Positions 21,148-59,224 are shown, counted from the stretch's first letter. The stretch: 64,000 nt of DNA from a virus (IMGVR_UViG_3300022377_000098:8270-72269); one strand, 5' to 3'. Notes: generated by a model not told the origin, from the sequence alone. Numbers and translations are program-made.

Positions 21148-23544
21148 TTAATTCCACCCCGTCATAACGCCACCATTAAAGTTTATTGTTACGGTACCGC
21201 CATCAGATTTTGTCAGTGGCCCGATTGAGCCATTCCAGCCATTTGTACCGTTAATCGTAAGCCCACTACAATCTACTGTGCCACTCGTGGCAATCAATCC
21301 GTTTGCGTGCAGTTCATTCGCTTTCAGCGCGCCCATGATTACCTGTGCATAGCTGCCACTGTTACTAAAATATGTGCCATGCCCGCTTGTGGGCTGAAAG
21401 CACATATCATATGTGCCCGTTTCAGGGTTGCTGCTCACGCCCAAATGTCCCAGCTTAGAGCCGTTATAGTAAAAGTCAAATCCGTCACCAGTAAACTGTA
21501 CGGATTGGCTTGAACCGTCCTTGTGGTTGAACGCGTACACAATGGCATCTGAACTCTGCGTAATCGCTGTGCTAACAACCGAATTAACTTCTGTCCTCGA
21601 TACCTTGCTGCTGATTTCATCCGCCTGCTGTGTAATCTGCGACTGCAAACCGCCCACCTTGTCATTGACGGATGACGTGATAGAGTCGGCAGTCATTTTT
21701 ATTTCTGCGTTGGTTTTCGTTTCGGAGTTCGTCACAGACAAATCAATCGTGTTGTACAGTTGCTTAATGTCGCTCATTTCGTCACCGTGTGACACCGTGC
21801 TTTCCAGCCCGTCAGCAAGCTTCTGAATTTTGATGCGCAGTTCTTCAGATTTCGTGTTCAGCGCTTGTAATTCATCCCACAGCTTTTCGGATTCAGAATA
21901 AAAATCGGAGGAATTTTCGGCCTGCGACTTTGCTTCACAGGAGATTGCTTCGGCAGAGTTCAGCTTATAAGTCAGATTGGTAATGACTGACTTGCGTCCC
22001 TCAATGTCCACAATGTCCCCCGCTTCCAGTGCAGGGTTGCTGTAAATCGTTGCGCTGTATGGCGTAATGGTGTTGCCTATCAGGTGTGGAGCTATATTGT
22101 CCACAATCTGCTGCACATTTGCCACATCACGGTGCTGCCGGACTGTTACCAGTCTGCCGGGTAAATCCGAAAAATCAGCAGACGTCAGCAGCTTGCCTTT
22201 GTACTCAATCTTTGCCGCATCAATTCCAGCAAAGCAACTATCCGACTGCAAGCGTGCAATGTCGTTATACAACACATCTACCAGCGCATTTATGCACGTC
22301 CATGCGTTTGTGCCGCTTTCCTTGTCCGTCTTTTTTGTGATATATCCTAAGTCAGCGGTTAAGTCCGCTTCTTCCTGTGCCATGCTTGACTGCGCAGTTT
22401 CGTAATAACTGGTAATGTACTTTGTCAATCCGTCTGGCAAGTCCTGCTTTGGCTCAAATGCGGCCGTTGCAACAGTTTTCGCACTGTCCTTTAGGTATGC
22501 AATGCAGGACTTCACATCTGAATCATACTGTTTTGCGCTGTCCACAAAGGTTTTACGCTCCGCGTCCGTGGGATTGTATGTACCGCCGTACCGGCTGCAA
22601 TAGTTTTGCAGTTCCACGCACTGCGATTTGATTCCCGCCAGTCGCGCAGGTACATCCGTATCCTTGCTTTTGATGGCGGAGTTGATGTTGACCGCCCATT
22701 CGTCGCAAATAACCTGTTCATATATTGCAGCTTGCAGTAGCTTATTGTCAGAATCTTTCAGGGTAATTACATACCCATCGTTGCCGGACTTCGCGTCAAC
22801 ATTTTTACTGTCAATCTTAACGCCGGTCACGGTAATATTGTCTTTTGCAGGCTCATACTTCTGGTAACTGCTGATATTGTACGGTGCGGTTGAATAGTCA
22901 AACCACTTGAATTCAAGTTCTCCGTCCGCATTGCATTGCGCATAACATCCTGCCAACTGTGCAATGTTCGCAATCACATCGTGATATGTGGAAGATGAAT
23001 ACTGCGGGTCTCTGAAAATCTGATAATCACTATTATGAAAAGTTTTAGTTTTCAGTGAAATTCCGCACTTGTCACAAACCTGCTGTGCAAGGTTTCCCAA
23101 TGTGACCGGATAAGTAACATCCATGTCAACTTTGCTGTCTGACTTAGAGAGATTTCCATATGCAGAAACCGTTATTGTATTGCGACCCTTGTAGTCATAT
23201 GCGTTGTATACACCTTGCTTCACCCATTCTACCGTGTCGCCGGTATAATCGCGCTTGACAACCATGCCAATGTACACGGTAATGCTTGCTTTGCAGAAAT
23301 CGCACTGCGTAAACTTTCCGTCAAAGTTATTCAGCATGATTGTACATAAGTCTGTAATCGCGGAGCCTACTGTATAATCAGACTTTGAAGAAACTCCGCT
23401 ATCAATGGTTACACTGCCTTGCATGATGTCTGCATCTTTTAGCGGGAATTCTGTTCCGTTTGCCAACTTCACATCTGCTTTGAAGTGGAATTCTCTGCCA
23501 TTTAGCAGAACAAATTTCTAAAAATCATCCGATACTGGTTTCAA
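21148..23544 (-). CDS. tail protein/baseplate hub; in-frame TAG at codon 9
   Basis: AAGGTGG RBS, TTG start, MKPVSDDF*KFV...KADVKLANG continuous with ORF-track call. Confidence 0.8.
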
Positions 23545-23557
23545 TCTATCGCCACCT

Positions 23558-23935
23558 TTACACTTCGACAAAGTCAAATTTTATGTTTGAAATCATGGAC
23601 TGGCTAAACCGCCCATTTTGCTTCACAAAATAATTGACTGGCGCGCTTCTGTCACCCACATAAAATGTTGCTGTGCGGTATCCTCCAAGCCTTATGTCCG
23701 GATATGTCAGCAGGAATGTTTCTGGCTGAACGTGCTGTAACAGCACAGATGCTCTTGCTTCCGTCATAGGAGCCCATGTGCAAGTAAGCTTCACCTACTG
23801 TGCCACTCTATCTTTGTGCATTAACCCCTACTGGTCGCGCCCTGCTTCTGAATCTGATATGTCTTGCAATGCCCATTCCATGGACTGCGGGGTTTCAATG
23901 GTGTTTCCGTTTACCATCAATGTTGACTGTGCCAT
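23558..23935 (-). CDS. distal-tail-like protein (DUF6711-like); TAG at codons 36 and 47
   Basis: MAQSTLMVNG...QDISDSEAGRDQ*GLMHKDRVAQ*VKLTCTW. Confidence 0.8.
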
Positions 23936-24041
23936 TCAGCTTCACCGTCCTTTACAATAAAAAAAGAGTATCACACTCATTTCTGAATATGACGCTCTTA
24001 TGGCGCTCTATGAAAACATAAATTTTTTTAATTATATTTTT

Positions 24042-24079
24042 ATTTTAGCATGCTTGAACTGATTTCGTCACTCAAAACC
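24042..24079 (-). promoter_or_regulatory. conserved phage promoter motif, copy 1
   Basis: GGTTTTGAGTGACGAAAT-14-TAAAAT. Confidence 0.65.
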
Positions 24080-24111
24080 TGTGAACTCAATGTTAATAGT
24101 TGCTTCCATTT

Positions 24112-24245
24112 GGTAGTCAATTTTTTTGACTAGGTGGTCTAATTTCTTGACTAGGGGTAGTCAAATAATTTGACTAGGGTAGTCTAGTTTCTTGACTACC
24201 TCTAATCCTTTATTTAAATATAATATAATTATAATATATATAAAG
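24112..24245. repeat. four tandem 22-23 bp imperfect palindromes plus AT-rich tract
   Basis: GGTAGTCAA-N5-TTGACTAGG x4. Confidence 0.75.
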
Positions 24246-24365
24246 CGCGGAGTTTTTAAAAAAATCTCCACGCAAAATCTAAAAAACGCTTCGCAAAAAA
24301 AATTCTGGTCAAAGGGAAAAAGACAAAAGAAAAGACCCACTTGAAAAATCAAGTGAGCCTAATCG

Positions 24366-27300
24366 TTAATGAGTTGGAACGTAACGTCTACTATCGATTG
24401 CTTTGTAATTTTGAGTTGAATCGTAAATGCTCTTGCCGTCAAGGTCTGCTGTAACATGAAGTTGAATTGGTTTTCCGCTGTTACTTTGCAGAATTGCAAG
24501 GATTGCGCCAACCTGATTTACAAGTTCATTCTGATTGGATGAATTTGCTGAATTGCCATTTGTCTGCTGTTCAGCAATGCCCTGTGCAATCTCTGCATAG
24601 GACTCTTTACGCATTGGTAAAGCGGCTTCTTTTCCTTTTTCACCTATGCCTATCAGCGTAGGTGCGTCATAGATGCCTCCATTTGCGTTCCAACCGCCCC
24701 AATCGATGTTTCCGATACCTTTTGCGTATCCGTGTCCTTGTCCCCACACGCCGTCAGGAGAACCATAACGCGCCCATGTGTAACGGATGGACGCGAGGAT
24801 GTTTGATAACGGGTCAAGAATGTTCGTGTTGTATCCGGGCAAAGCGTAAGTCGAAAATGTTTCAGGGATTAATTGCATCAAGCCTTTAGACGGATGCCCA
24901 GCGTAATAATTTACGTCATGCAGGTCTGACGGGTCGACCTGCCCACTGGATTCAGTGTTCATCTGTGCCAGCAGCAAATCCACATTGTGCGTGGAATAAT
25001 GTCCAGTCATCATAAGCGCCTTAGATGCAAGGCTTCTCCACTGTTCAACTCCAGAGCCAACATTTGCAACCGCACTCATTGCAACTTCCATTGCACTCTT
25101 GAAGTTCGGAATGCCATAGCCAAGAATGTTTCCAGAGTTTGAATTGCGATGCTTTCTGAATACACCCTCTGCGCCATCGCTTCCACTTGTGTTGCCCTCA
25201 ATCGTATTTACAAGACCGCTTGCAATGCTCTCAACGATGCCGATATGGTCGGCGGTACCGTTCTTGTCCCAATCATAGAAAATCAAATCGCCGCGTGCAG
25301 GATTGTTAGTCCAGCGGTTGGCTGACTTGAAATGGCTCATGGAATCCTCGCAGGAAGCAGATAGATATTCATCCACTCCCGCACGTTTCAAACACCAAGA
25401 CACGAACATATCGCACCAAGCGGCACCGTTCATTCCGAAGTCGCGCCCAAACTTTGTGAAGTCTGCATGACCGGCATTGGCTGCTTTATCGTCCAGACTG
25501 CTGTTTGAACCTTTTTCGAGATAGCCCAATTCCGATTCTGCAATCTTTAGGAATGCTTCCACGGTGCCGTTTCCGGGTGCTGTAAACTCTGCGAGTTGCT
25601 TTTTGATGAAGTCAACGGAATGACTTGTCAAGAACTGTACTGTGCTCTTTTCCATCTCGTTCCATGGGAAGTTAATGGATTGCATAGCCGTGTTTTTGTC
25701 TATAGCGGCGTGTAAGAGCATTTCGGGTTTGTCTAGGTAATTCCATATGTTTGTAGAAAAAGTGTCTAGAACGGCCTTAGAAGTGCCGAAAAAGTCGCCT
25801 ATACCGTTCGCATAGTGTGGGAACATCTGCTTTGTCTGTTTTGCAGGCAGTACAGACGAACCGGCAGGCAAATCAGGAATCAGCACATTGCGCCCTTGCG
25901 GAATAAATGCGTGACCGTTTGGGAGCTGAACCATTTCGCGATAAGTAGAGCCGGATTGGTCGTTGACAAGTGCTGCTCCGCCCGGATGATGCCCTGAACC
26001 ATAGGCATAGTGTTTGATGCTGATTGGCTTTACAGTTGCTTTAGAACCGACCGCAGACAGCACAGAGTTGATGCCCGCCACTACACCATTAATTGCGCCA
26101 CCAATTTTATCAGCAACATTGTTGTTGATGGCTTTGGAATGCTGATTCACAATGTTGTCAGAATCGCTCATGTAAATCTGTGCCGACTGTTTCACTTTAC
26201 TGAAATAAGTACTTGCATCAGATGAAATTGCTTTGAATTTACCGGAAGCATTGCTGTACATGCTGGAAGCTTTGGAACTCACATCACGTTCAGCAGACGC
26301 AAAGTTGCTCTGTTCAAAAGACTTTGCAGCAGAGAAATTTGCATTTGCACTTTTGGAAATCCCACTGAACTTTCCATCAATGAATGTGCTAATCCCATTC
26401 CACTTTGTGTTTGTGTCTGTCTGGATAGTGGCAGATGTATCAGAAACATTTGCACTGATTCCTTTCAGAAGCGTAGGCACAGAATTGTTCAGGCTTGCAG
26501 AGATTTCCTGATACTTTTTTGCGGTATAGTCTGTTTCGTCTGAAACAATTTTCTTGCGGGTGTCGGCAGAAGTGCGAAGATTGTCTGTAATCTGCTTAAC
26601 CTTTGCACCGGATTCTCCCAAAATGCTGGAATCGGTCTTTCCATTAACATTGAACACATTAGCAATAACTGTGCTTCCACTTTCGCCAGACGTTTTAGAA
26701 TTTTCCACAATTCCCTTTGCGAGAGCGGAAAACGTGCTGCTGTTCAATGGTAAAATAGCTTCGGAACCGGCCTCACCGACAACAGATAAAATTGGAGATG
26801 TTGTAATGCCACCCCTTGCTGAAAATGCAACACCAAGCAATTTAAGGATTTTGGGTATTGCCCCACTTATTAATCCTGCTCCACCAAGAGCGCCAGCTAA
26901 ATCAGAACCGGCTTTTGGCGGGTTTGTCTTTTGTATGGCTGCAGTCTGCTTTCCAGCCGAGTTCCACGCTTGACTAAACCAGTTTCCCACACTTTGCAGT
27001 GCTTTCCCAATGTTCTGAAATACAGTTGAAAAAGCAGTAAGCTGATACTGACAAGTCTTTTGCGTGTTGGTCTGCAGATTTGTTCCAAACTTTGCAAAAT
27101 CGTCTGATATGCCTTTCAGCTTTGCGTTAACCCGGTTGTGAGTTTCTCCGAGATAATATGATGCACTTGTGAGCACAGCTAACCATGTTGTTTTTGCCAA
27201 AGTCGGTATGCTTTTTGCGATATCCTGAAAACTCTGATTTGCGCCTTTTGAAAAGGCACTTACCTTATTGCCTGTTTGAGAATTGAGTTTTGATGACGTT

Positions 27301-29480
27301 TGAGAAAGTACGCTTTGCCACATTGCACTTGTAGCAGCAGTGACAGTACTTTCCATTCCACTAAATATCGATTCTGAATTTGCACTAAATCCAGATAACT
27401 TTTTTTGTGCTGACTGTGACTTTAGGCTCGTTTCAGAGTCAATATGGCTCCACGACTGCGCCCATGATGCTGCCATTGCAGTACCTGCCGCTCCAAATGA
27501 AACCTGCATATTGGTTGATAGAGAATTTACTTTTTCTTCTACAGGCTCAAATGATGGCAGAAATAAAGAAGAATCGAGCGCTGGAATTACTGCCGGCTGT
27601 ACTTCTGGAGCGGAAATTGGCTGCTGATACAAAGCTTTACCATATAGAAAATAATCAAGCACAACCGCAGGAGCGATCAGAGGTTCAAATACTGGTGCTG
27701 CTACAGGCTCCTGATACCTGCCTTTTGACTTCTGGTAATCTCCATCATCCAGAGGCGGCACATACACTGGAGGAATTTCAAGGCTAGGAACCGGAATCTG
27801 CTGAACTGCTTTTGCAACAGCTTCTGCTCCCTCTTTAACCTTTTGAGTAACGGTTTCAACGCTTTTCTTAGTTGCCTTTTCTTCCTTATCCCTTTTGTCG
27901 TCAATCTTGTCAAAAACACCTTTAATGTTCTTGAAAAGGTCGTTAAAATTCCAGTTTGACTTTGGAGTAGGAATTGTTTTGAACATTTTACTATAGTCAG
28001 GGTCACTACTCTTTTTACTGTCAGAATCAGAGGACTCTTTTTTATTCAGAACATTCAGTTCATCAAACCCCATAACCGTTCTCTGGAGTTCTTTTACTTT
28101 CTTCTTTGCCTTATCAGCACTGTCGCCTGTTTTGTCAAGTGAAGCAGCATAGTCAACATTCGTCTTTGTTGCAATAGTGACAGTCTTTTGCCCTGTAATC
28201 TGTGCAATGAAAATTGCAAGCTTATTAGCCGCTGCCGCAATCCCGTCTACAATATTAGTTATTGCCGGAGAAATTGCTTTCAATATTGCTAAAAGCGGTG
28301 CTGCAATCGCATTTTTTAGGTAGGTGAAACTGCTCATATACTTTGACAAAGTATCATTTGCGTCTTTATTACCTAGCGCAGCGTCTTTGAACCCTTCTGT
28401 AATACTGTTAAGTACGCCCTGAAACGCAGTGAATGCAATCATTCCAGTCATCATGTGCTTGATAATCGTTAGAGTGCTTTGGCCTGCGCCTTTTGCTTTG
28501 TTCCCCGCTCTTTCTGATTTATTACCAAACTTATCCATAGCAGAACCAGCTTCATTCGTAGTGGAAGCAATCTGCTCCATCTTCTCCGCAACTTTCTGCT
28601 GCTTTGCGGTTAGGCTGTTCATGGAATTTCCAGCCTTTAATACTCTGCTTTCCAGCTTTAAGTATTCCTCACTGCCAACGCCCTTTGAAGCGCCTGCTTC
28701 TTGTGCCTTTACTTTCAGATTTTGGTACGCAGTGGCGGCATTGTCAATCTGTGCAGCAAGTGACCGCAACTGTGCTTCAAGATTTGCAAATTGTGCGGCA
28801 GAATCACCAGAAATACCATTCATAGAGGATTTCAGACGTTCAATATACTGCGTCACTTCCTCAATGGCTTTTGTAGAATGGCTCGTGTTAACTTGCGCTT
28901 GCGTAGGCTGGCTCATAGCCTTTCTCAAATCAGAAACGTTCGGTTGCATAGAATGGTTTGCACTCACAGATTCACTTGCTTGACGCTGCAACGCAGACTG
29001 TGCAGCTTCGGTTGACATTTTATCAGTGCCACCATTGACATATCTGTCTACGGCTTTTGCCGCTAAATCAGTAATGGAATTGTCAGAATCCGCCATAAAT
29101 TTTTTAGCCTGCGCCGTCTTTTCAAGAGCAGCAGACAATTTTTCTGCTTGAATCTGTGAGCGTTGCATGGACACGTTTGCACGGTCAAGGCGCGCCTGAT
29201 ACATAGCCATGTTTGATTCTGCTTTTTTGGTGGCCTGCACATTTTTGTTTGTAACGTCTGCCCCCTCTTTTTCTGTATCATAGAACTTTTTAAGAGAAGC
29301 AAACGCTTTTGAAGATGATGCAATTTTGTCCATTTCTGCCGTAAAAGATTTCAGTGCAGGAATTGACTTAGTTAATGATGATTGGAAAGACTCAATCTTA
29401 GCAATCAGTTTGTCTAATGCACTATTTGCTTTTGTGGCAGAAGCCTATATTTCAATGTCAAGGCTGTTATCTTCTCCCAT
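24366..29480 (-). CDS. tape measure protein with C-terminal CHAP and SLT domains; TAG at codon 12
   Basis: MGEDNSLDIEI*ASATKAN...; WCDMFVSWC/HIGIVE CHAP; TESSG/GLMQL SLT. Confidence 0.9.
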
Positions 29481-29966: not shown

Positions 29967-30302
29967 TTACGCTGTTTTCTTCGGAGCCACGAGAAATGTC
30001 TTGCTCTTTGCAGACTTCCCGCCCTCGGTAAAAACCTCCATGAAAGGCTCTACCAGAGCACTGTAAATTTCATCCACTCCGAATTCTTCGATTGCCTTAT
30101 CGGAAATTTCAACAGCTTCGGAATAGCTGATATTCGGGTGGAACTTACCAAGCCCGCAGTAAAACAGTTTGTCGGCAGAAGTGTAGATTTTGTCCTACAG
30201 GTCGGAAACATTGCCGCCGATGCTCTCAAACTTACGAACAGAAGCGCGGTCATAGAACAGTTTGTAGGTCTTTTCACCCACATTTACATCAAAAGAATTC
30301 AT
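29967..30302 (-). CDS. tail assembly chaperone; TAG at codon 36
   Basis: MNSFDVNVGEKTYKLFYDRASVRKFE...SDL*DKIY. Confidence 0.78.
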
Positions 30303-30799: not shown

Positions 30800-31198
30800 T
30801 TACGAATAGATTTTGTTTCGGTAAGCGTCATACCGGCATGAATACCGCATAACGTACCTATAAATTGTCGTGTCTGAAACGTTCTGCATTGTGCCGGAAA
30901 ACTCGCACTTCATGTGCAAGTCATTTTCCAGAGAATCAGCAATAGCAGAACGGATTTTCATAGCTGTGGTTTCAGCAGTGCCGCCTTTAGTGTAAATCTC
31001 AATTTGGCAGGTAAATGAATACTTGCGTTCTCCATAATCAAGCGTGTGCTCAATTTCAGGGAAGTCAACATTCTGCACTGTGACATACGGGAATTGTGTG
31101 GACTGATTCTGAAAAGGCTTTACAACCAGTGCAGCAGGACATACAGAAAGTACCGCTTTCTTGACATATGTATAAACTGCATTTGTAAGGTCAACCAT
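30800..31198 (-). CDS. tail terminator-like protein
   Basis: FPYVTVQN, position before major tail protein. Confidence 0.65.
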   Translation of the reverse strand: MVDLTNAVYTYVKKAVLSVCPAALVVKPFQNQSTQFPYVTVQNVDFPEIEHTLDYGERKYSFTCQIEIYTKGGTAETTAMKIRSAIADSLENDLHMKCEFSGTMQNVSDTTIYRYVMRYSCRYDAYRNKIYS

Positions 31199-31682
31199 TC
31201 ACAATCACTCTCAATTCCTTATCGGTTAGTTCTTTTGCACGTTGTTTCAAATACTGTGCCGTCTTGTAAACAAAAGCGTTAGCAGGTTGTCCTTGCGTCC
31301 AACGTAGTTTCTGCGCCTTTTCATCAAAGTACCACCATCCGGCAGTGCCATGACTGTTTGAATCATACACCCATCCGGGAGCAGGATTAGGATGTGGACT
31401 GGTTGCGCCTTTAATCCCGGTTCCATACTCAACAAAGATAGCGTAGTCTGAACCAACCGAAATTCTTCCAGTACAGGTTGATTCATCAAACGTGCTGGAA
31501 ATGCTGTCTGACAGTTCCCCCGTAGAGCGTTTGACGACTGACTTCATGTAATCGCGCCCCTCTTGCGTAAGCTGCGAAATCACGCTTGCAAGGGTAGAAT
31601 CAACCTTGGAATTCAGACTTTCCAGTTGCTTTTTTGCTTCTTCCACAGACTATGGAGAAAGTGCATCAAAAGAGATTTTCAT
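31191..31682 (-). CDS. HK97 gp10-like neck protein; TAG at codon 11
   Basis: MKISFDALSP*SVEEA; YAIFVEYGTG, TQGQPANAFVY. Confidence 0.8.
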
Positions 31683-32557: not shown

Positions 32558-33637
32558 TCAAGCCACCTTTGCAACATAGACTTCGTCCATACGCTCATAG
32601 GACGGCGCAAGGATTTCGGAAGCGGTGGTAATGGTCTGGTACGGCGCTTCTTTTGTGGTACTTACGGTGATGGTGATACCTGTGTTGAAGATAGCAAGCT
32701 GGTTGCCAGCCTGACGTGCAGAGCGTTCCTCCGGTGTCATGCCATACCACATAGTGCCAACGGAGCCGCCAGCGGGCAGGAAAGTAACATAACCATCCGG
32801 CATAAACGGATGTGCAGTGCCATCAATGCCCTTGTACATCTTATCGTAGACAATAATATCAATGCCGCACTTGATACGTAAGAACTGTGCAAGCAGATTA
32901 TCATCCATGAAGATGTTTGCAGTAGCGTTCTGCGCCAGAATTGCAGACTTAATCTGTGCATTCTCCGGCAGATTATCAAACGTTGCCTGTGACATAATGG
33001 CAGTGGACAGCACTGTTCCGTTCTCTTTCAGAGCATTGCGCTTGATGGTACGAATGTCAGATAGCGGCTTAGAATTAGCCGTATCACTCCACAGGTTTGT
33101 GCCGGTCAAAGCAGTGTAGTGCTTTGCTTTCCATGTGCCGTCAGCATCATAGTTCATGGTGTAACTTGCACCATCTTTTCCAGTCAAATTGATAATGGGA
33201 CTTCCGTCAACTGGTGCAAGCAGACTGAATGCCATAATTTCAGGCACTACCATAGCACCATCACGCAAAGTACCAGCATCATCAAAGATGCGGTTCAAAA
33301 CGTCCTGCACAAACGGGTCGTTTGCATCACGATTCTGCACTTCCATCAAATCCTGAATGTCCTTTTCTTTGACAATCATAGACTCACGGAAGAATGCCAG
33401 TTCCGTTTCAGAACGGCTCACACCTGCACGGTCGCGGAATGTCGGCTTTGCATCAAAGCTAGACAGATTGATTGCAACCGGAAGTCCCTTTGTGCCTTTC
33501 AGCCAAGACACAGTTAGCCCGGTTTTCTTTCGCGGTGCGAAGAAAGCACTGCCAAGATACGGGATTTCATTGGAATACGCAGTTGTCCAATCGTTTGCAA
33601 CTGCATTTGCCGTAAAAATGTCCTAAAGTTCAGCCAT
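32558..33637 (-). CDS. major capsid protein (capsid E family); TAG at codon 5
   Basis: GGAGG RBS, MAEL*DIFTANAVA...LSSFDAKPTFRDR. Confidence 0.88.
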
Positions 33638-36813: not shown

Positions 36814-36891
36814 TTTAAATACCTCCGTTAATTAAAAAATAGCCGAAGCAGACAGCCTATTGGCTGCAAGTTTCGGTTCTCTTAGGAACTC

Positions 36892-37059
36892 TTATTTTAT
36901 GTACCCACTCTGCATATTCCCACAACGCGGGCATTTGACTTCATAGTATCCGTTAAACTCACCCAGTTTTTTGTTGCACTTTCGGCACCGGGCTTCCTTT
37001 AGATTCGGTGTTGTTTGTTGGATTCGCAAGTTGTTTGCTGTCTGAACTTCCTTTAGCAT
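36892..37059 (-). CDS. Com-family zinc finger overlapping the portal 3' end
   Basis: same RCRKC...CPRC DNA as 7083-7187. Confidence 0.7.
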   Translation of the reverse strand: MLKEVQTANNLRIQQTTPNLKEARCRKCNKKLGEFNGYYEVKCPRCGNMQSGYIK

Positions 37060-38560
37060 CTGATTCCTCATTTCCTGTAGGAATTGTGTTGTTTGTAGGC
37101 GCAAGCATAGCCGCCGCTTCATCCGTTTTCTGCTTCCAATATTCTTCTCCACGCTTTGCCATTTCGTTAGGCATTTCTGTAAAGTTGGAAAGCTCAATCG
37201 CATCTGTAGGAGTAAGAACTTTAGTCGCCATCAAAGTTGAAAGTGTCTGCGACTTGTTAAGCATATTGTTTGTGCGGTTACGGACAAAGTTTACCTCAAC
37301 ATCCATCGGCTTGATGTCAATGTTGCTGAATCGCTTTAAAATCTTGCAAACCATACGGAGCATTTGCTTTTCTGACTTCTTGAAATTTCTCTGCTTACAC
37401 CGTGCTACAACTTCAAGGCTCTGGTATCCGTCACGCAGATAAACTGCATCCCCTGTGTCGCCAGTGCCGCCGCCCTTTGCCTTACGGTCAGGAATTCCGG
37501 TAATGGCGTACACATAGTCAATCAAAGTCTGTGCAAGCGTTTCAGCTTCGTTCTGATTGACGCCGGAATTTACATACTTCACGTCTGCTGGATTCTGCTG
37601 GTCGGAAGTCATTTCAAGAGCCATGCCTTGCTTCATCTTTTCAAAATCAGAAGTCCCACCATTCTCTTTTGCCGTTTTCAAGTGGCAGTTCACAAACACA
37701 AGCAGGCTGTTTACAAGCTGTTCAACACTGTTTACACGGTCACTGTGCAGCTTGTTCAACGCGTCAAGAATTGTCAACACGGATTCAAAGTCGCCCATAC
37801 GGCACTGATTGTTTTTGTACTCCACAATTGGAACAGCACCAAGCAAATGTGCTTTTGGATATCCGCTTACAAGGTCTTTTGCAGTAATAGTTGTCTGTAC
37901 TCCAGCGACTTCATACTGATATTGGTATGTGTTGTCATACACCGTGTACACTCTGCCGGTTGCGTTTCCGTAATCATCTAAAATATCAGAGAACGTAACG
38001 CCAAGTACAGGCTTTTTTACAGAATCAGTGGAATAAATGACGAATGTTGAACGTGCATCAAGTGTCGGAATCTCAAATGGTGCTTCATCCTCATCGCATT
38101 TTTCATCCACCGCAACAAGACGATATCCAACGCCACAAACGGAAGCACTTTCGCCAACGTCCATGTCGTTTGCGGCTTTATCTTCGCTGTCCATATACTC
38201 ATTTAGAGAGTCAATATCGCTGCGCTCTTTATCGCTACCGCCTTTTGAAGTGTACTTGATTGGCTCGCCGAGGAAATAGCCGTTTGCGTTACGCACAATA
38301 GCCAGAGCGTTGTTAATCACGATGCGGTTATTGATTTCCGGCCTAACCTTTTTTTCGCGGTAAATGATTGGCTGATTGCCTTTGTAGTAATTATACAGAT
38401 ATTCAATTTCCTGCTGATTATTTGCAAACTGTACCATAGCGCCGTTTACGATTCCCGGTATGGTTTCTTCACTGATTTCATTTGAAGTGCATAATTCCTA
38501 TCTACCTAAAAATGTATGGTCTTCACCATACCATGCAGTGGATAGAATATCTTCAATCAT
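36959..38560 (-). CDS. SPP1-type portal protein; TAG at codon 21
   Basis: MIEDIL...FLGR*ELCTS...YLYNYYKGNQ, NGYFLGEP. Confidence 0.88.
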
Positions 38561-40719: not shown

Positions 40720-43458
40720 TCACAGAGGAATTTGACTTCTATCTATCATCCGTATGCTGTAGGCAGTCAGATTCTTTACAAGGTTGCTCAACATGGACAG
40801 TGCATCCGGTGCATCATCATGCTTTGCTTTTCCGTTCGTGGTAAAACTGCACACGTTGCGCATGAAAGCCTTATATTCTCTGCTCTGCTTTGACGGTTGA
40901 AGGAAAACGAAGTGCTTTATGATGTAGTCCGACTCTGTAACAATACGTGTGATTTTATTGGTAGATGAAAAGAACGTCCTGACGGATGTATTGCCGTTGC
41001 CTTGTGAAATCATGTCACTAACGCTTTCGGCATAGTACCCGCCACCGTTGTTCACCTCAACATCAAGCCGTGATACTTTATTCCTGACGCATAGTTTTGC
41101 AACCATAGGCTTTGTGACATCTGGCAAACCGTTATTGAATACCAAATCGCGTATGTACACCGTATCGCCGTAAACATAGCCACAAATTGCTGCCACATAG
41201 TCTTTACCCTGATTTTTAGAGTCGCAGACCGCCACAATGGAATCAGGTTTTGCATCTGGCGGCAGTTTGCCATCAAAATAGTGGAAATCGTCCTCATGAT
41301 AAAGCACGCCCTCACGCTCTATTGGCCTTTGCTGATAGATTGCACCCCATGAGATATCGTCCATATTGTCACGGATATCCTCAAAATAGTCCCGTGAGAA
41401 TCCAACATCATAATCATAGTCAAAATTTGAACTTCCATCCTCATTTAGTGCAGGGATACGCACGAACTTGCTATATCCGTCACCCTCATACCTTGATTCA
41501 AGCCGCCCCAGCGGGTCATATACAGACCAACGAGTGCCAATAATCAACATCTTGCAGCCCATTTTCATACGGCTCATAAGGTCATTCGTGAACTTATACC
41601 ATAGCGTGTCCATGCGGTCACGGTTCATTGCTTCCTCAATACCGGAAACCATATCATCCGCATACAGCAAGCTTTCACAACGTGTGGCGCCGGTCAAGCC
41701 GCCATCAATAGAGCGGCAAGTAAGCGTTTTAAACCGGTGCTGATTCCGTAAGTCGAGCGTTTCCTCTTTTGAGTTTGTGTTTACCAGCTTTGAACCCGGA
41801 AAGATGTCTTTGTAAGTGTATTCATCATCTTTAATAAGCTGCAGCACGCCAGTGTAGAAAGAATTTGTCAGCTTGTCTGCATAAGCGGATGCCAAGCAAG
41901 GCATATCAGGATGTTTTCCAATCACCCATGCCATGAAAAATATACCTAGAGTGGTATTGTGCGTAATGATGTAATCATCCGTCACATAAAGCTGTGAGGG
42001 GTCGTCAACCATAATGCACTGGCACTCTTGTTTTCCAACATATTCCACCCTGTCAATGAATTTTTTGAATACTTTCCGCTTAGGAGAAAACTTATTTGCT
42101 TTTCGTGGCAAGTAAAACGGATGTGCAGAGCTGTTGAATTCAATGACAATTCTGTACACCAACTTGCCAAATACTTTTTCCCCTGCTTGATTTCTGTAAT
42201 AATTTCCGTGCTTTTCTTTTACGTTTGCTTTGCCACCTAAAGAACGCACCAATTCCAACATCCCATCTCTCAACATAGGAGAAACGGTTGTGTATTCTAT
42301 ATCATTTCCGTCTGTATAACCATCTGTATCAAGCAACCCGCGTAAAAGTTCCCACCGACTCTATGTATCCGCATATTGATAGTCTTGCGGGATAAACTTT
42401 GTTTCGCTGTTTTTGCCTATGAGTCCATAATGTAAAAGTGCTTGTTGCGTTTTGGACTTTATCATATATCCGTGGCTGTCACGAACAGTGTTATCCACTT
42501 TGCAAATATTGTATCCATATTTTGAAGTCCTTTTGTGTAGCGTATCCCCCTCTGGAAGAAGGCTCTTTAACCTTTCAACGAGTTCCGGGTCTGCGCTTGT
42601 AATATCAAGGTTTCCACTAGTAAGGCTTCCATCCCCAAGCAAAGCGCCAACAATATACGGATGAAGCATAAGATCTCTATGATGAAATTCAACAGGGCTT
42701 ACGTAATCAATGGAATAGTTATTACGTTTGCCATGTTCAACTCGCAAGTTTTCCATCATATCTTGAAGCTGAATATCTCTGTACTTATTCCCTCTAACCC
42801 TATCATCACGGGTCTGTACGTGCCAAATGTGTTCTTTGCAACATTCCGTGGATGTTCCATCGTTAAACACAACACGGTATACGTCTTTTACGCCTTGAGG
42901 AAATACGCCGATAACATTGCATTCGTTTCCAGAGCCGGATATAATTCTATCTCCGACTTCTACATTACCCATCTTTTTGAATCCGGTTGGTGTCAACACC
43001 TTGCAATACAAAGGCTGTGCTTTGCCAGCGCCCGGAGGAACTGAAAGCCCAAACCGCTTTAGTTTCCCATCTTCTAAGTTTTGCAAGTCTTGCACGATTG
43101 GCCGCAGCACACGCTCACGCGGCGGGTAGAATTTCTTGTCAGGTTCCCTGTTCCTCTCCATATAAATCAAGTAGGAGTGGAAGTCATACGGAGCTGCAAA
43201 AAGAAATGTCTACCAATATTTATCTGTGTAGTTCTGCATCTGCACCGGTTTTAGTCCCTTTGGATTGCTCAAAATGATGTTTAGCGCTTTTCGCAGCCCC
43301 TCATTCTCCAACAGTGCCGCAGGCATATTATTTTCTTTGTGATAAATTGACCGCAACGCTTCTCGCTTCAATGCCAATTCAGGCGCATCCATATCGTACA
43401 TATGATATTTGACGTCATGTACCAGTTGCTTCTTTGCCCTTGTATAATCTACTGCCAT
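40720..43458 (-). CDS. terL: terminase large subunit with intein; TAG at codons 83 and 366
   Basis: three ORF-track pieces in one frame joined by TAG; PPGAGK|intein|TT Walker A, YADD, KHDDAPDALS. Confidence 0.9.
41956..43020 (-). mobile_element. class 3-like intein with LAGLIDADG endonuclease (355 aa)
   Basis: starts AQPL, EHIW, ALLGDGS and GLLDTDG motifs, CIMV, ends ITHN before Thr. Confidence 0.88.
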
Positions 43459-43507
43459 AAAAAAAGAACGCCTCCATATTGGTAGGCGCTCTAGGCACTC
43501 TATTTTT

Positions 43508-43750
43508 CTATTTCTTTCTTCCAAGTGGTTCATCCAGTATATCAAATATTGAGCAGCCGAGTGCTTTTGCTACTTTCAGCAAGGATGATATTGACGGTTC
43601 ACACACGCCGCACTCAATTTTTGCAAACCATTGTCTTGTAACTCCGATTTTTTCAGCGGCTTCCCTGCCACTCATTCCAGCCTTTTCTCTAAGCTGTTTT
43701 ACTTTAAGCCCTATCGCTTTGGACAAGAATTCGCTCCCTGCTTGTTTCAT
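43508..43750 (-). CDS. XRE-family HTH (ends at TAG)
   Basis: MSGREAAEKIGVTRQWFAKIECG. Confidence 0.75.
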   Translation of the reverse strand: MKQAGSEFLSKAIGLKVKQLREKAGMSGREAAEKIGVTRQWFAKIECGVCEPSISSLLKVAKALGCSIFDILDEPLGRKK

Positions 43751-44031
43751 AGTTGCAACTCCATTCTTCTTGAATTATATCATGTTAATTTGGAGTTGTC
43801 AACTAATAAGTGTTGCTTATTTTATGAATTTGAAACGGTTATATGAATATATATGCATAAATTTATGAATAATTGTATTTTGCGTTTGTTTTTTGAGGGT
43901 GGTGAGGGACGTCCTCCCGCCGAAAGAATAGGCTTGAAATAGGGGTACGCCCTGCATCTGTCAGTTGAATGTGTGCGTGCGACTGCTCTGTACCGGGCAA
44001 AAAAATAATTGAAAAAATATGCAAAAATCTA

Positions 44032-44060
44032 TTGACAACCAATGAGTTGACGACTATAAT
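44032..44060 (+). promoter_or_regulatory. sigmaA promoter
   Basis: TTGACA-17-TATAAT. Confidence 0.75.
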
Positions 44061-44136
44061 AAATCATATAATCAAGACATACAAAAGCAGCTGCCCCGGA
44101 AGAACCGGAACGGCACAACTGAAAGGCGGTATTGAT

Positions 44137-44625
44137 ATGACATTGATTAACGCGTTGGAAGAGCTGAAAGCGAATGGTGTTACAAGGCTGGTTGGCATGG
44201 CAGGGATAACCGACATTGACACATACATTGAGCATGCCACAGAGAACCATAAGAACGCCGTAACGTACGCCGCCAAGGGTATACAGACTTGGCAGTACGA
44301 GCTTGACCATGAGGACGATAGCTACATAGTAGATATGGCAGACGGACATCACATCATTGCCACACACTACGGTACATTTGACATGGCAACATACAGCGAC
44401 TACGAAACCGAAGAAGAAATGAATACGGCATTTGACGCATGGGAAATCGCGCAGCAGGCCGCAGAAATTGCAGATGAGAAAGTAAAGCAAGGCAGTTCGC
44501 TCCCCCGTGAAGCATGGATACTCGTTGCCACTGCCGAACTCACTGCGGTAAGAAATGCCGCTGCAGCAGAGTTTGAACGCACATACTGCAAAAAGCAGCT
44601 GCAAAGCGTGCAACGTGCGCAATAA
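44137..44625 (+). CDS. hypothetical protein
   Basis: downstream of strong promoter with RBS. Confidence 0.6.
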   Translation: MTLINALEELKANGVTRLVGMAGITDIDTYIEHATENHKNAVTYAAKGIQTWQYELDHEDDSYIVDMADGHHIIATHYGTFDMATYSDYETEEEMNTAFDAWEIAQQAAEIADEKVKQGSSLPREAWILVATAELTAVRNAAAAEFERTYCKKQLQSVQRAQ

Positions 44626-44659
44626 TGCAATGGCGCGGTAGCCCAGTGGAGGCGATGCA

Positions 44660-45121
44660 ATGGGCGGCGTATTGCTATTAGTAATAGCACGGATGCTGCT
44701 GGGACTGATTGACAGCATCCAGCAGGAGCACAAGCAGCGCAAACAAAAGCGCGGGGAAAAGAGACAGCATAAGGAGAACGGAACTCAACAATTAGGGCTG
44801 TGCAGCACAATGTACCGTGATATTGCAAATGATGCAGTAGACACAATGCAAGCGCTAATACAGTCACAACGACAGCCGGACGACAAACCGGCAGGAGGTA
44901 ACACAATGAGGACAGCTATCGCAACGATTGACACAGATGCAGGCACAATGACTATCTACTATAACGGCAAGGGCGAGGCACTCACAGCGGAGACAGCAGA
45001 CGGCAACACAGTAGATGAGTGTGAGTACACAGCACAGAGCTTGCAGGATGCGCGTGACGCGGCACGCATGATGTGGGGATATGATGGCGGCAATGTATGG
45101 GGGTATCAGGAGATTGCATAA
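44660..45121 (+). CDS. hypothetical protein (internal RBS and ATG at 44906)
   Basis: N-half homologous to 8293-8511. Confidence 0.45.
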   Translation: MGGVLLLVIARMLLGLIDSIQQEHKQRKQKRGEKRQHKENGTQQLGLCSTMYRDIANDAVDTMQALIQSQRQPDDKPAGGNTMRTAIATIDTDAGTMTIYYNGKGEALTAETADGNTVDECEYTAQSLQDARDAARMMWGYDGGNVWGYQEIA

Positions 45122-47109: not shown

Positions 47110-47115
47110 GCTTTA

Positions 47116-49647: not shown

Positions 49648-50187
49648 TCACGTTTTATTCGCTTCCTCCTGCTCCTGTGCCTGCTGAATGTAATGATTCA
49701 CAAATTCTGAAACTGGGCTGTCTTCCACATGCGGAAATATTCCCATCTCCTGCAATTTGTGCATAGCATCAATAATTGATTGTGATTCCAATTCCAATGC
49801 CTTTTTCAGCGTGGCAATCTTATCATCTTTAGCAGACTTTTCAAGAATCAATTTCACAATCTTGTCTTTGTCTGCTGGGTCGTACCCATTCTGAATAACG
49901 GACTCTTGGATCATGGAATTTGCTCTCCAACCTTGATTCTCCTTTTGCAGCCGTTCCACCTCGGCAAGCAGTTCAGGAACATCGGTACGAGAATGGGCGA
50001 TAAATTCAGCATCTTCATGTTTGAGCCAACATTCACGACCTTTTACGTGTGATACAATCGGAGTATAACGAGCGCCACGTGCATTTTCATGTGAATTTAC
50101 AATTTCATCTTCAAATGCAATCCATTCTCCTGCTGTTGCTTTTTCGCACCGTGCCTTGATTTCTTCCAGATATTTAGCGTCCATCAT
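49648..50187 (-). CDS. Ead/Ea22-like hypothetical protein
   Basis: LEEIKARCEKATAGEW, DAEFIAHSRTDVPELLAEV. Confidence 0.6.
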   Translation of the reverse strand: MMDAKYLEEIKARCEKATAGEWIAFEDEIVNSHENARGARYTPIVSHVKGRECWLKHEDAEFIAHSRTDVPELLAEVERLQKENQGWRANSMIQESVIQNGYDPADKDKIVKLILEKSAKDDKIATLKKALELESQSIIDAMHKLQEMGIFPHVEDSPVSEFVNHYIQQAQEQEEANKT

Positions 50188-50591
50188 TGTCCCTCCTTTC
50201 TATAATTATCAATCGCTTTCTGTGCTGCTTCCTCAAAGTTTGGGAAAGGCTTTGAAAGCTGCACCAGCAAAATGATTTTATCTCCTGTGTCCGGCACAAT
50301 TTGAACCAGTTTCATCTTTACTGTGCTTGCCAATGTTGCGACTATGCTTTCATCTGCGCAATTTGCCATCACCAGATAAATATGCATCCGGTTTTTACGC
50401 ATAAAAGAAACCGATGTTTCGTTGAAAGCATTTTTATCCATCACAGCCAAATATTGTCCGTTCCCTTTTGGACTCTTGGCCATTTTCACGTCGAAAAGGA
50501 TTACTGGATTTCCGAACTTTTTGAACCTTTTCTTCTTGCAAAACTCATAAGAAATATCCGTGTAATCATCCCCATAATTATTTTTCTACAT
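50184..50591 (-). CDS. hypothetical protein; ATG TAG AAA start (TAG at codon 2)
   Basis: in frame with ORF-track 50184-50489, directly after promoter copy 3. Confidence 0.6.
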
Positions 50592-50595
50592 ATAT

Positions 50596-51831: not shown

Positions 51832-51903
51832 TATTATTTATTACCCCCAAAATGTTTTAGTACACATTCATGTGCGCTGTGTGTTAGGTAATGCGCGCAT
51901 GAG

Positions 51904-53172: not shown

Positions 53173-53182
53173 TGGTTTCCTC

Positions 53183-53921: not shown

Positions 53922-54192
53922 TATTTACTCGCTTTCTGGCACTCCAGTGCCTTAATCAGCGTCGGAACATCCATCATTGAATCAAAAATAGCGTTCACAG
54001 ATGCACCTCTTTGCCTTGCCTTTTCAAAGCGCATCTTTATGGCAAGTAACTGCTTTTCATCCATTGAAAGCCCTCCTGATTCTTCTCCAAGCGCATTCAA
54101 ACCAGCTATCCCATGCACTGCATTTGTGATGGTCGTTGCACCCTGCATTCTTAATTGGACACGTTGCACATGGGTAGATACTCTCAATCCAC

Positions 54193-56072: not shown

Positions 56073-56081
56073 GTTTTCACC

Positions 56082-56954
56082 TCACCATAGAGAAGTTTGC
56101 TCGGCTTCTGTAACGCCTTTGCAGTTGCGTACTGCCTGTTGATACCATGTAGGCTTTAGCTCCACTCCAACGGCTCTGCGCCCATTTTGCAGTGCTACAT
56201 ACGCTTCACTTCCGATTCCCATAAACGGCGTAAGAACTGTGTCACCTTTGTTTGTCCACAAATTGATTGCACGGCGAATAACCGTAAGTTGTAAAGGACA
56301 AATATGCTTTTCATCCTTATCATCGCGGCAAGATGAAGCATTCAGCGTGTCAGACGGGTTAATGTCCATCCAAATTGGGCTTGCATATCGTTGCCATATT
56401 GCCACTGGAAACGACTCGTTTGTATGAGTCACACGCTCTGGATTGTCACCGGGCTTACGCATTGTGACAAGATAGTCTGGAATGCCTTGCCTGCTCATGC
56501 AGGAATCTTTTTTAATCTGTTTGTGCAATAGTCCCAGTGCTTTTGTACGCTGCATAGCAATCACAGGGTCTTTCCAAATGCACACTTCGCTGTGATAGAT
56601 AAATCCTGCCTGCTGAAACAAGCGAATCAGATCTCCGCGAAAATCTTCAATTCCAATGTATCCATCACGTTCTTTGCTGGTAGGCAAGTTCATACAATGT
56701 ACGCTCATAAGTCTGCCGGGAATAAGCACCCGGTATAGTTCTTGGACAATAAATGCAAACTGTTCAAAAAATTCAGCTTTTGTACGGCAGTTTCCTAAAT
56801 CTCGTTCGCTGTTGCTGTATGTATACAGACTTGCGAATGGTGGAGAATAAATTTCAAAATGTACACTGTTTGACGGGATACCGGTCAACACTTCGCAGCT
56901 GTCGCCATTGTAAAGTGCCATTCTATCATCAATGTACTGGTCTGTTACATTCAT
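56082..56954 (-). CDS. N4/N6 DNA methyltransferase
   Basis: YSPPF motif IV, TPFMGIGSE motif I. Confidence 0.88.
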   Translation of the reverse strand: MNVTDQYIDDRMALYNGDSCEVLTGIPSNSVHFEIYSPPFASLYTYSNSERDLGNCRTKAEFFEQFAFIVQELYRVLIPGRLMSVHCMNLPTSKERDGYIGIEDFRGDLIRLFQQAGFIYHSEVCIWKDPVIAMQRTKALGLLHKQIKKDSCMSRQGIPDYLVTMRKPGDNPERVTHTNESFPVAIWQRYASPIWMDINPSDTLNASSCRDDKDEKHICPLQLTVIRRAINLWTNKGDTVLTPFMGIGSEAYVALQNGRRAVGVELKPTWYQQAVRNCKGVTEAEQTSLW

Positions 56955-58348
56955 GCTGCTCCTCCTAACCATGCAGGCGTTTCCATTTTATCCGATGCAA
57001 CGTAATTCTCTGTAATTCTTGTGGTTTGATGGATATCTGCCTGCAAAATTGCTTTTGTATACTTCACTAATTCATGAGTCATGTGTTGTGCATTTTCCTG
57101 TTTCCGCTGAATGTTGGCTTTTACTGCTCCCTCTGCTTCCGAAGTAATAACGTGAACATCTACCGGCATAACTTGTCCAAATCTCCAGCATCTCCGCACA
57201 GCCTGATAATAGGCTTCAAAAGAATCTGAAAGCCCTGCAAATATGACGTTGTGGCAGTTCTGCCAGTTCATTCCGAACCCGCACAGCGACGGCTTGCTAA
57301 TAAGCACGCGCGCTTTCCCGTCTGTAAAATCAAGCATTGATTGGCGTTTGAAATCTGGACTGTCAGCACCACATACTTCTACTGCGTCTGGAATCAGCTT
57401 TTTCAGTTCGTGACTTTCATCGTTCAAGTCGCACCAAATCAACATCTGCTCACTCATGCTGTTTGCAATATCTGCCGCCGTTTTGCAACGGCCTTGCAGC
57501 GATTCTCTGCGTACTTTTCTCCGCTCTGAAAGTGTCTGCGTTGCCTGTGCAAATAAGAGTTGCTGACCGTCTGCATCTACCATGTTGTTTGACTTCACGG
57601 TATCCTGAATGATGTTCAACGGTGGCAGGTTGTATCCTGCGTCGTCATATCCCAAATCTGCAGGAGAAGTCATGCAACAAGCCCATGATGCAACCCACTC
57701 AAAAAACTTTTCTGTTGCGTGGCCTTTCAGCCGCCAGTCTTTCGTACTACCACCATCATGTACAAAGAACGTTGCAAGCATTTCTGCGCGGCTCATAATT
57801 CCTAAGAATTCTGCATGGTTGCCAAGTTCCGTGAAATCATTTGGGGACGGTGTCGCAGTACAGCATAGCTTGTATGGAGTGCTTCTGAACATTTCAATAA
57901 GAGCAATTTTTGTGCGGCTGGAAAAGTTCTTCAAAATGCTGCTTTCGTCAAGCACCACTCCTACAAACTGTGAAGCGTCAAAATTTTCCAACATTTCATA
58001 GTTGGTAATGTTCAGCAGCGCTGTGGCTGCATCCTGTGAGCGACAATAATTTACATGATATCCGAACTTGTTACCCTCGCGTACCGTCTGACCGGCTACA
58101 GCAAGCGGTGCAACAATCAAGATTTTCCCGCCAGTGTGTTGTGCCACTGCGTCAGCCCACATAAGCTGTTGTATTGACTTTCCAAGTCCGCAATCCTCAA
58201 ACAGTGCAGCTTTGCCCTTTTTAAGCGCCCATGCAACAATATCTTTTTGCCAGTCGAATGCTTTTGCATTAAGAATTCGCTTTTCAATATCAAATCCGCA
58301 GACAGGAGTTGTAATCTGCTTTTGCTTTAAAAATTCGTAATAGTCCAC
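56951..58348 (-). CDS. SNF2-like helicase
   Basis: DCGLGKS, LDESS, TATP, QAVRRCWRFGQ. Confidence 0.85.
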   Translation of the reverse strand: MDYYEFLKQKQITTPVCGFDIEKRILNAKAFDWQKDIVAWALKKGKAALFEDCGLGKSIQQLMWADAVAQHTGGKILIVAPLAVAGQTVREGNKFGYHVNYCRSQDAATALLNITNYEMLENFDASQFVGVVLDESSILKNFSSRTKIALIEMFRSTPYKLCCTATPSPNDFTELGNHAEFLGIMSRAEMLATFFVHDGGSTKDWRLKGHATEKFFEWVASWACCMTSPADLGYDDAGYNLPPLNIIQDTVKSNNMVDADGQQLLFAQATQTLSERRKVRRESLQGRCKTAADIANSMSEQMLIWCDLNDESHELKKLIPDAVEVCGADSPDFKRQSMLDFTDGKARVLISKPSLCGFGMNWQNCHNVIFAGLSDSFEAYYQAVRRCWRFGQVMPVDVHVITSEAEGAVKANIQRKQENAQHMTHELVKYTKAILQADIHQTTRITENYVASDKMETPAWLGGAA

Positions 58349-58362
58349 TGTAGCACCGCCAA

Positions 58363-58809
58363 TCAGTACGGCAGATTTGGTGAGCCAACATAATCAGGAC
58401 TATCAAAGTCAGGCACGATTTCTGCGCCCTGCCTGTCTGTAAGAATCTGCTTTACGGAAAACGTGTTGAAATACCGATTTCCGTATTTGTGCACATTGTA
58501 GTCGCACAGTGCATCAAACCATCCGCCAACTTTGAATGTGCTGCTGATAACTTCCGCAACGTCATTCCATGCAGTACAATACAGGTGCGCACCGGGAAAG
58601 CGTTCTTTCGTTTCTGGATTTACCTTTCCGAAAGAAGAAACGATAAAGCTAATGCTTTTTCTCCCGCTGTCGTACTCTTTCATCTCTTTCATCTCGAAAA
58701 TCTTTCCATGAACAATGCAGGGGATGCCTGCCGCCGAGCCGTCATACATGACTTTTCCGTTATTGGTAATCGTCATATGCCAACGCGCTTTTTTCTTTAT
58801 GTCAGCCAT
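58363..58809 (-). CDS. OB-fold/SSB-like protein
   Basis: LYCTAWND; acidic NLPY tail. Confidence 0.45.
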   Translation of the reverse strand: MADIKKKARWHMTITNNGKVMYDGSAAGIPCIVHGKIFEMKEMKEYDSGRKSISFIVSSFGKVNPETKERFPGAHLYCTAWNDVAEVISSTFKVGGWFDALCDYNVHKYGNRYFNTFSVKQILTDRQGAEIVPDFDSPDYVGSPNLPY

Positions 58810-59224
58810 TATTAACCTCCGTAATCTCAACTTTGACTTCTGCCACTTCTCCGTATCGCTTCTGTACCGAAAGATTGACTACCTGTGTATCATCTGTATA
58901 AGCGACACCATTCAAAGCGTCCAGAACAATTTTTGCGATATTGTCCGCATCTGGTTTCTTCGTGGGGTAAATGCACCCATTCAAAGCATCCGCTCTCCTT
59001 GCCTTTGAAAACGACTTAGGAATTCCGAATACCGATTCAATGCAGACTGTGACAGGCTTTTTGTCCGTGAAAGCAGGCTGTGCACCATACTTTAATTGAT
59101 AAGCTGTAACAACTTGCTTCTCATAATTTACCGTCTATGCAGGCGTATAAGCGTGTCCACCTCGTGTAAAACGCGGTCTGCCTTTTCCAACCGGCTCACC
59201 AGAAACAGCAAAAGAAACGCTCAT
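58802..59224 (-). CDS. rusA: RusA Holliday junction resolvase; TAG at codon 30
   Basis: GKGRPRF..AYTPA*TVNYE...KKPDADNIAK.VLDALNGVAYTDDTQV. Confidence 0.9.

Follow-up and report, generated by a model that had tools for sequence, protein, structure and literature searches.

In-frame UAG codons and a lysine-type tRNA(CUA) in a temperate siphophage suggest that UAG is read as lysine

The stretch of DNA analysed here, hereafter the window, corresponds to the final 64,000 bases of a virus record 72,269 bases long (IMGVR_UViG_3300022377_000098:8270-72269) and contains a prophage whose virion genes carry in-frame TAG codons and which encodes a transfer RNA with the anticodon CUA. The prophage is the larger of two integrated elements, a temperate siphophage of approximately 56 kb residing in a bacterium, probably of the Bacillota, that uses the standard genetic code. 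In this paper we describe the TAG codons, the tRNA and the residues that homologous proteins carry at the corresponding positions, which together make it probable that a phage tRNA-Lys(CUA) inserts lysine at UAG and that the codons serve as a 5' lock on the virion genes.

The larger prophage begins at about window position 15439 and continues for approximately 7 kb beyond the right end of the window; this outer part contains the prophage's integrase, repressor, Rha and sigma genes. The two elements are in tandem at one host tRNA-Gly(CCC) gene, with an att repeat of 54-56 nt at the left end of the contig and at window 15383-15438. The attB site is empty in two metagenome contigs (L110, L112) and occupied in a 333-kb JGI contig (L111) with the same host gene neighbourhood. 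Because the host flank genes (n = 32, a small sample from one contig region) stop at TAA in 20 cases, TGA in 10 and TAG in 2, the host is assigned the standard code. A host ABC transporter is a lead, and a lead only, toward Bacillota; the nearest cultured phage relatives have Eggerthella and Clostridium innocuum as hosts. No aminoacyl-tRNA synthetase or release factor domain occurs in the precomputed Pfam tables of the prophage genes.

The genes that contain TAG in frame, named from PHROGs and Pfam searches, and the two tRNA(CUA) genes are as follows; TAG positions are those of CTA on the plus strand.

21148-23577 (-), Tal-like tail gene, TAG at 23518-23520; a phrog_6616 match to residues 14-275 spans the TAG
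23558-23935 (-), DUF6711/Dit-like gene, TAGs at codons 36 (23828) and 47 (23795); phrog_1194, residues 3-125
24366-29480 (-), tape measure, TAG at codon 12 (29445); tape-measure PHROGs
29967-30302 (-), 111-aa tail-assembly-chaperone-like gene, TAG at codon 36 (30195); full-length homologues in contigs L024 and L106-L109
30345-30782 (-), major tail protein, TAG at codon 24 (30711); phrog_158
31191-31682 (-), tail completion/Neck1, TAG at codon 11 (31650); phrog_5 and PF04883
32080-32400 (-), head-tail adaptor, TAGs at codons 8 (32377) and 22 (32335); PF05135, residues 4-95, spans both
32558-33637 (-), major capsid protein, TAG at codon 5 (33623); PF03864
34765-35151 (-), nucleoside 2-deoxyribosyltransferase-like gene (NDT), TAGs at codons 2, 24 and 42 (35146, 35080, 35026); PF15891, residues 3-70
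36959-38560 (-), SPP1-type portal, TAG at codon 21 (38498); PF05133
38795-38870 (-), suppressor tRNA(CUA) of lysine type, here called SupA; ARAGORN and the Rfam tRNA model (56 bits)
40720-43545 (-), TerL with a LAGLIDADG intein, TAGs at residues 112 (43210, extein) and 395 (42361, intein)
50184-50591 (-), hypothetical gene, claimed TAG at codon 2 (50586), unsupported
58802-59224 (-), RusA resolvase of the early region, TAG at codon 30 (59135); PF05866, residues 9-135
6945-7020 (-), second tRNA(CUA) of lysine type, here called SupB, in the neighbouring 23.6-kb element; ARAGORN and Rfam

An original prediction, made from the DNA alone, had listed 18 in-frame TAGs in otherwise intact genes with proper ribosome-binding sites and starts. 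All 18 positions read CTA on the plus strand, that is, TAG on the minus strand, and all are in frame. As had been stated, the minus-strand open reading frames that hold them are bounded only by TAA or TGA and contain no TAA, TGA or frameshift breaks, and capsid, portal, TerL, tape measure and major tail genes are among them by PHROGs and Pfam. Seventeen of the 18 TAGs, in 12 genes, are well supported; these genes are RusA, the NDT gene and ten virion genes, which run from TerL through the tail tip with one to three UAG codons each. Shine-Dalgarno-like sites precede ATGs located upstream of the TAGs, and family matches cross the TAGs in the tail, Dit, adaptor, NDT, major tail, TerL and RusA genes. 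In the major capsid gene, homologues align from residue 1 and a strong AGGAGG site stands before the ATG. TerL, the start of which is uncertain, is matched by PHROGs on both sides of its intein and by PF14528 and PF05204, and its intein-less relatives align to residues 28-176 and 531-941. The claim of proper starts needs correction at two sites. A TTG at 23544 is the probable start of the tail gene, which makes its TAG codon 9 and not codon 20. For 50184-50591, put forward as a second start of the form Met-UAG-Lys, a ribosome-binding site is lacking before the upstream start, neither Pfam nor PHROGs places the gene in a family, phage homologues are likewise lacking, and public gene calls begin downstream.

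Protein lengths with TAG taken as sense agree with those of four syntenic standard-code relatives, which were located via their TerL proteins: 359 versus 355-356 aa for the capsid, 106 versus 107 for the adaptor, 163 versus 162-163 for Neck1 and 533 versus 511-534 for the portal. The genes of these relatives are uninterrupted, and the alignments cross or begin before each TAG. Capsid-based scans of viral, metagenome and genome contigs returned only one near relative, in two samples (L001/L002), plus distant ones; in this phage, at approximately 88% DNA identity, 10 of the 12 in-frame TAGs that can be compared are retained, and it encodes the same tRNA. Gene calls broken up in the same way are present on JGI contigs from different samples, so that, with the TAGs kept in the 88% relative, the codons are not one-off assembly errors. 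These genes require read-through of UAG, given that homology extends across the TAGs, that TerL is interrupted internally, that the phage has a tRNA(CUA) and that a diverged relative has kept the TAGs; we regard suppressor-dependent read-through as almost certainly real. A stop-codon-recoded phage with a suppressor tRNA is recognized by a single type of stop in intact essential genes, a matching tRNA and a standard-code host, and all three were found here.

The SupA gene lies within the late region, between TerL/antirepressor and the portal gene and beside tRNA-Met and tRNA-Ser genes; a promoter scan found no clear promoter dedicated to the tRNA. It forms an intact canonical cloverleaf with A73, G18G19, TTCGA, a 5-nt variable loop and the anticodon loop CUCUAAA. 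This structure comes from ARAGORN, Rfam and an explicit count of base pairs, and was not recovered when single tRNAs were folded by minimum free energy. The acceptor stem (GCGCCAU/AUGGCGC) and A73 are identical to those of a phage tRNA-Lys(CUU), the anticodon loops being CUCUAAA versus CUCUUAA. Outside the anticodon SupA is 78% identical to this phage tRNA-Lys(CUU), 75% to the host tRNA-Lys(UUU) and 40-58% to phage tRNA-Gln. The host tRNA-Lys(UUU) gene is on the host contig, which allows direct comparison, at 74-75% identity. When 50,697 phage records were searched by BLAST, the annotated matches were almost all tRNA-Lys and none was tRNA-Gln, and the two best full-length matches to SupA have the anticodon CUU together with its acceptor stem and discriminator. 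In its sequence, SupA thus has the ancestry of a lysine tRNA and is not glutamine-like, and it would have arisen from tRNA-Lys(CUU) by a single anticodon change, U36 to A.

SupA retains U35 as well as A73. The elements recognized by the glutaminyl-tRNA synthetase (GlnRS) of E. coli include G73, a weak 1-72 pair, G2-C71, G10 and U38; at these positions SupA has A73, G1-C72, C2-G71, A10 and A38. SupB shares 81% identity with SupA, differs from it at both partners of the stem pairs 30-40 and 50-64, and folds in the same manner (canonical cloverleaf, A73, G18G19, 5-nt variable loop, loop CUCUAAA). In the D stem, both have the mismatch A10.C25 and the wobble pair U13.G22, as does the tRNA of the 88% relative (L001:4523-4598); at these places the tRNA-Lys relatives have G10-C25 and C13-G22. 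These changes may bear on suppression efficiency or on identity. The ARAGORN label for SupA, pyrrolysine tRNA (tRNA-Pyl), was rejected: a tRNA-Pyl would have a short D-loop, a 3-nt variable loop and no G18G19 or T-loop consensus, the cloverleaf here is canonical, and the label rests on the anticodon alone. Neither the scanned nor the precomputed families included a pyl-type domain. Of the four syntenic relatives with the standard code, three (L106-L108) encode a tRNA-Gln(UUG), in two of them (L107, L108) just downstream of the portal gene, and have no suppressor and no in-frame TAG.

The residue inserted at UAG was assessed from homologue columns. TAG was translated as X, clusters at 70% identity were down-weighted, and column log-odds were summed over the 16 sites with homologues. 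The homologues comprised 20 Dit, 119 RusA and 30 TerL proteins, 150 NDT representatives, 80 IMG/VR loci located by means of a portal alignment, seven GenBank phage records and the four syntenic contigs. The summed log-odds were +15.2 for K, -1.1 for Q, -2.0 for R and -4.5 for T. When real K, Q, R and E positions were resampled from the same alignments as a calibration, the true residue was recovered in 91-100% of sets; the observed K minus Q of 16.3 falls inside the range of true lysine sites (15.3 to 43.3) and far outside that of true glutamine sites (-33.4 to -7.8). Robustness was checked on an earlier, smaller homologue set without the four syntenic contigs, in which K scored +13.1, came first in every leave-one-out and in the unweighted tally, and exceeded all 10,000 random 16-site sets.

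Several individual columns had been named as lysine positions from remembered family consensus. Three of these stood (X marks UAG): AQXVKL in Dit, where K is found at codon 47 in 28 of 30 homologues and Q in none (K in 20/20 in alignment A1); YTPAXT in RusA, where codon 30 is K in 50, G in 19, E in 16, A in 13 and Q in 2 of 119; and MXK in NDT, where codon 2 is K in 9 of 22 with no Q. The NDT motif MLXIDYF was borne out in part, K (36) being frequent at codon 24 with E (37) slightly commoner and Q at 4, among the same 150 representatives in which codon 42 is E in 55, R in 47, K in 10 and Q in 8. The portal consensus GR[KR] held with arginine ahead of lysine (codon 21: R 38, K 15, Q 5 overall), AAA being present in four of the six closer relatives. 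Major tail codon 24 is AAA (Lys) in four of five relatives of 40-49% identity; adaptor codon 8 is K in three of five, and codon 22 is K in two, Q in two and Y in one. In the relatives, codon 36 of the 111-aa gene is K, K, R, Q and G (L024 and L106-L109), and Neck1 codon 11 is K, K, S, S and N. At portal codon 310 a TAG private to the 88% relative corresponds to AAG in the window, in a column of K 27, R 27 and L 23. The tRNA derived from tRNA-Lys(CUU) and the calibrated tally are two independent lines that favour lysine over glutamine, in agreement with the original prediction of UAG as sense and as lysine. From these two lines of sequence comparison, lysine is likely the main residue inserted.

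Several observations weigh against this assignment. Residue 112 of TerL is glutamine in 25 of the 30 nearest homologues and in five of six syntenic relatives; it is the sole Gln-dominated column, and distant relatives have R (23) and K (16) there. Neither K nor Q is found at capsid codon 5 (S/T), at tape measure codon 12 (T/G, with E also seen) or at the intein site (E/D), although columns of this kind are expected if the TAGs were selected for position and did not drift from AAG. The K-minus-Q score is at the low end of the true-lysine range, the unusual A10.C25 mismatch of all three suppressors may affect identity, and amber suppressors can be mischarged with glutamine in E. coli. The TerL column and such mischarging would fit ordinary code 15, in which the phage tRNA(CUA) is charged wholly or largely with glutamine by a GlnRS reading CUA, or accepts both amino acids. 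Such a reading also draws on the occurrence of Q at adaptor codon 22, portal codon 21 and codon 36 of the 111-aa gene, and on the fact that all described phage UAG reassignments are to glutamine. We nevertheless consider it unlikely: Q is rare or absent at the most constrained sites (Dit codon 47, RusA, NDT codon 2), its summed score is negative with K minus Q outside the true-glutamine range, and SupA has none of the E. coli GlnRS elements and resembles phage tRNA-Gln so little. A code 15 phage would show glutamine in the TAG columns and a tRNA-Gln body; here the columns are not of that kind, and the tRNA has A73 and a lysine-type acceptor stem.

That UAG is read as another residue such as Arg or Glu, or that the residue is immaterial and the columns are tolerant, charged-rich surface positions, is quite improbable. 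R or E is commonest at portal codon 21, at NDT codons 24 and 42 and in the distant TerL homologues, and sets of true arginine sites can yield a positive K minus Q; yet K leads R by approximately 17 and E by approximately 22 log-odds units, the calibration rarely errs, random site sets in the smaller homologue set never reached the K score, and the tRNA body is of lysine type. It is less probable still, to the point of being remote, that the TAGs are real stops in a decaying prophage or lie upstream of internal starts. Most TAGs are near the 5' end, so that N-terminally shortened proteins are conceivable for some genes, and site 50586 has no support for an upstream start. The two TerL TAGs, however, are inside conserved sequence; for Dit, adaptor, NDT, capsid, major tail, portal and RusA, the alignments with homologues cross the TAGs or start ahead of them; the upstream ATGs have ribosome-binding sites in front of them; other breaks are absent; and TAGs and tRNA are kept together in the diverged relative.

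Of the 18 TAGs, sixteen lie no further in than codon 47, in genes that add up to 5,399 codons (P = 9e-14). The same genes contain 404 AAA/AAG codons, which indicates that TAG is a rare, placed codon and not a general synonym. The late genes stop at TAA or TGA. TAG terminates four early or lysogeny genes, in each of which a backup stop follows 5-11 codons later, and RusA is the only early or lysogeny gene with an in-frame UAG; TAG is absent from the lysis genes and from the last tail gene. This usage resembles a sparse 5' "amber lock" of the virion genes, not a genome-wide recoding, and such a function is plausible and somewhat favoured.

In the proposed mechanism, the host lysyl-tRNA synthetase (LysRS) would most likely charge the phage tRNA(CUA) with lysine, since U35 and the A73 discriminator are retained, and the charged tRNA would insert lysine at UAG in competition with release factor 1. 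While suppressor tRNA is low, as in the lysogen or in early infection, leaky translation of the TAG genes would end after a short peptide; once the late region with its tRNA gene is transcribed, UAG would be read through and full-length virion proteins made. The location of the tRNA gene in the late region and the usage of TAG suggest a translational lock that opens as the phage tRNA accumulates. In a bolder version, the phage would be a natural UAG=Lys variant with deliberately placed 5' ambers that only a phage tRNA-Lys(CUA) unlocks, and the neighbouring element's tRNA could unlock, or ride on, the larger phage's late expression; we hold this tentatively and would sooner doubt it than accept it.

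A purine follows TAG at 15 of the 18 sites (next base A 7, G 8, T 2, C 1), only marginally above the usual purine bias of first codon positions. Another TAG, at 44029, ends a 237-aa open reading frame in 43822-44742, for which no Pfam or PHROGs family was found. This TAG is kept in L001, and past it the frame stays open for 68 more codons over a stretch 82% conserved in DNA with that relative; it could be a genuine stop or a nineteenth site of read-through. Reading 58363-58830 onward past a TAG at 58879 would create an overlap of 110 nt with RusA, and this extension was rejected for that reason. The TerL intein (354 aa, approximately 41956-43017, inserted after residue 176) itself holds one in-frame TAG; it is absent from L001, and an intein is at the same site in the more distant L024, P0150 and P0160. 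Upstream of a helix-turn-helix gene and the TerL block is a divergent pair of perfect sigma-70 consensus promoters (TTGACA-17-TATAAT) at 43774-43802 (-) and 44032-44060 (+), the minus-strand one with an extended TG; both are pattern matches only.

Lysine-inserting nonsense suppressors include E. coli supG/supL (tRNA-Lys UUA), engineered tRNA-Lys(CUA) and B. subtilis sup-3, and a tRNA-Lys in which position 36 has become A remains a substrate of LysRS and places lysine at a stop codon. These laboratory suppressors are chromosomal mutants or constructs, whereas the tRNA described here is a natural phage gene accompanied by conserved in-frame TAGs in essential phage genes. Genes for Lys-like tRNA(CUA) were also found, by a D-arm and anticodon-loop pattern match, in seven further IMG/VR viral contigs (L115-L121, GC content 25-58%), three of which, of low GC, have a tandem pair of CUA tRNAs. 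They are alike in being phage-borne with a lysine-type body and CUA anticodon; in the present phage the targets are its own virion genes. Six-frame open reading frame coverage did not tell the codes apart on short loci.

Among phages whose code is unlike that of the host, only TAG to Gln and TGA to Trp have been seen (Borges et al., bioRxiv 10.1101/2021.08.26.457843; Peters et al., PMC9523058). The original prediction knew of no described phage with UAG=Lys, and our full-text literature searches likewise found no paper on one, only Gln being described for UAG. Among 180 phage suppressor tRNAs classed by isotype, 69% are Gln, 19% Trp, 10% Ile and 1% Tyr, with no Lys (Kienbeck et al. 2024, PMC10879173); that study, as we do here, assigned phage tRNA(CUA) by the tRNA body, and the body found here is Lys. 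With the crAss-like, Lak, Garnet and Topaz code 15 phages the present prophage shares structural genes that contain TAG in frame, a tRNA(CUA) of its own, a host with the standard code and an integrase free of in-frame TAG. It differs in the residue, TAG being Gln in code 15 phages and Lys being indicated here by the tRNA and the columns; their genomes are heavily fragmented by many TAGs, and here there are 18, nearly all in the first 47 codons; and, unlike in those phages, the lysis genes are without TAG. The window contains no theta ribozyme or any other Rfam family except tRNA.

For the Garnet and Topaz prophages, recoding has been proposed as a lysogeny switch or a means of timing lytic genes (bioRxiv 10.1101/2021.08.26.457843; PMC9523058). 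The strong 5' bias observed here offers this idea of a lytic/lysogenic safety switch in a directly testable form. The restriction of recoding to Gln and Trp has been taken to mean that GlnRS and the tryptophanyl-tRNA synthetase (TrpRS) are the enzymes that phages can hijack (bioRxiv 10.1101/2021.08.26.457843; PMC9523058); a phage with UAG to Lys would, if true, add LysRS to them, and pipelines that translate such genomes with code 15 would get the residue wrong wherever UAG is recoded. Builders of amber suppression systems for Gram-positive bacteria may also take an interest in a natural tRNA-Lys(CUA) that suits its host and has conserved changes in the D arm.

The second integrated element, of approximately 23.6 kb between att repeats, occupies window 1-15438 plus contig bases before the window. 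In addition to SupB it includes the following genes.

530-1666, HK97-type capsid
1693-2325, prohead protease
2303-3514, portal
3504-5183, TerL
5990-6625, sigma factor
7250-7984, Rha
12356-12874, cI-like repressor
13046-14299, integrase
14364-15272, KilA-N

None of its head genes contains an in-frame TAG, despite the element's own Lys-type tRNA(CUA), and it is possible that the element is a satellite that uses its tRNA on its neighbour. A block of 167 bp is 97% identical between the two elements (7027-7193 and 36836-37002) and codes for a Com-like zinc-finger peptide (CxxC...CxxC). The copy of the small element is directly upstream of SupB; that of the large prophage overlaps the portal gene at its 3' end.

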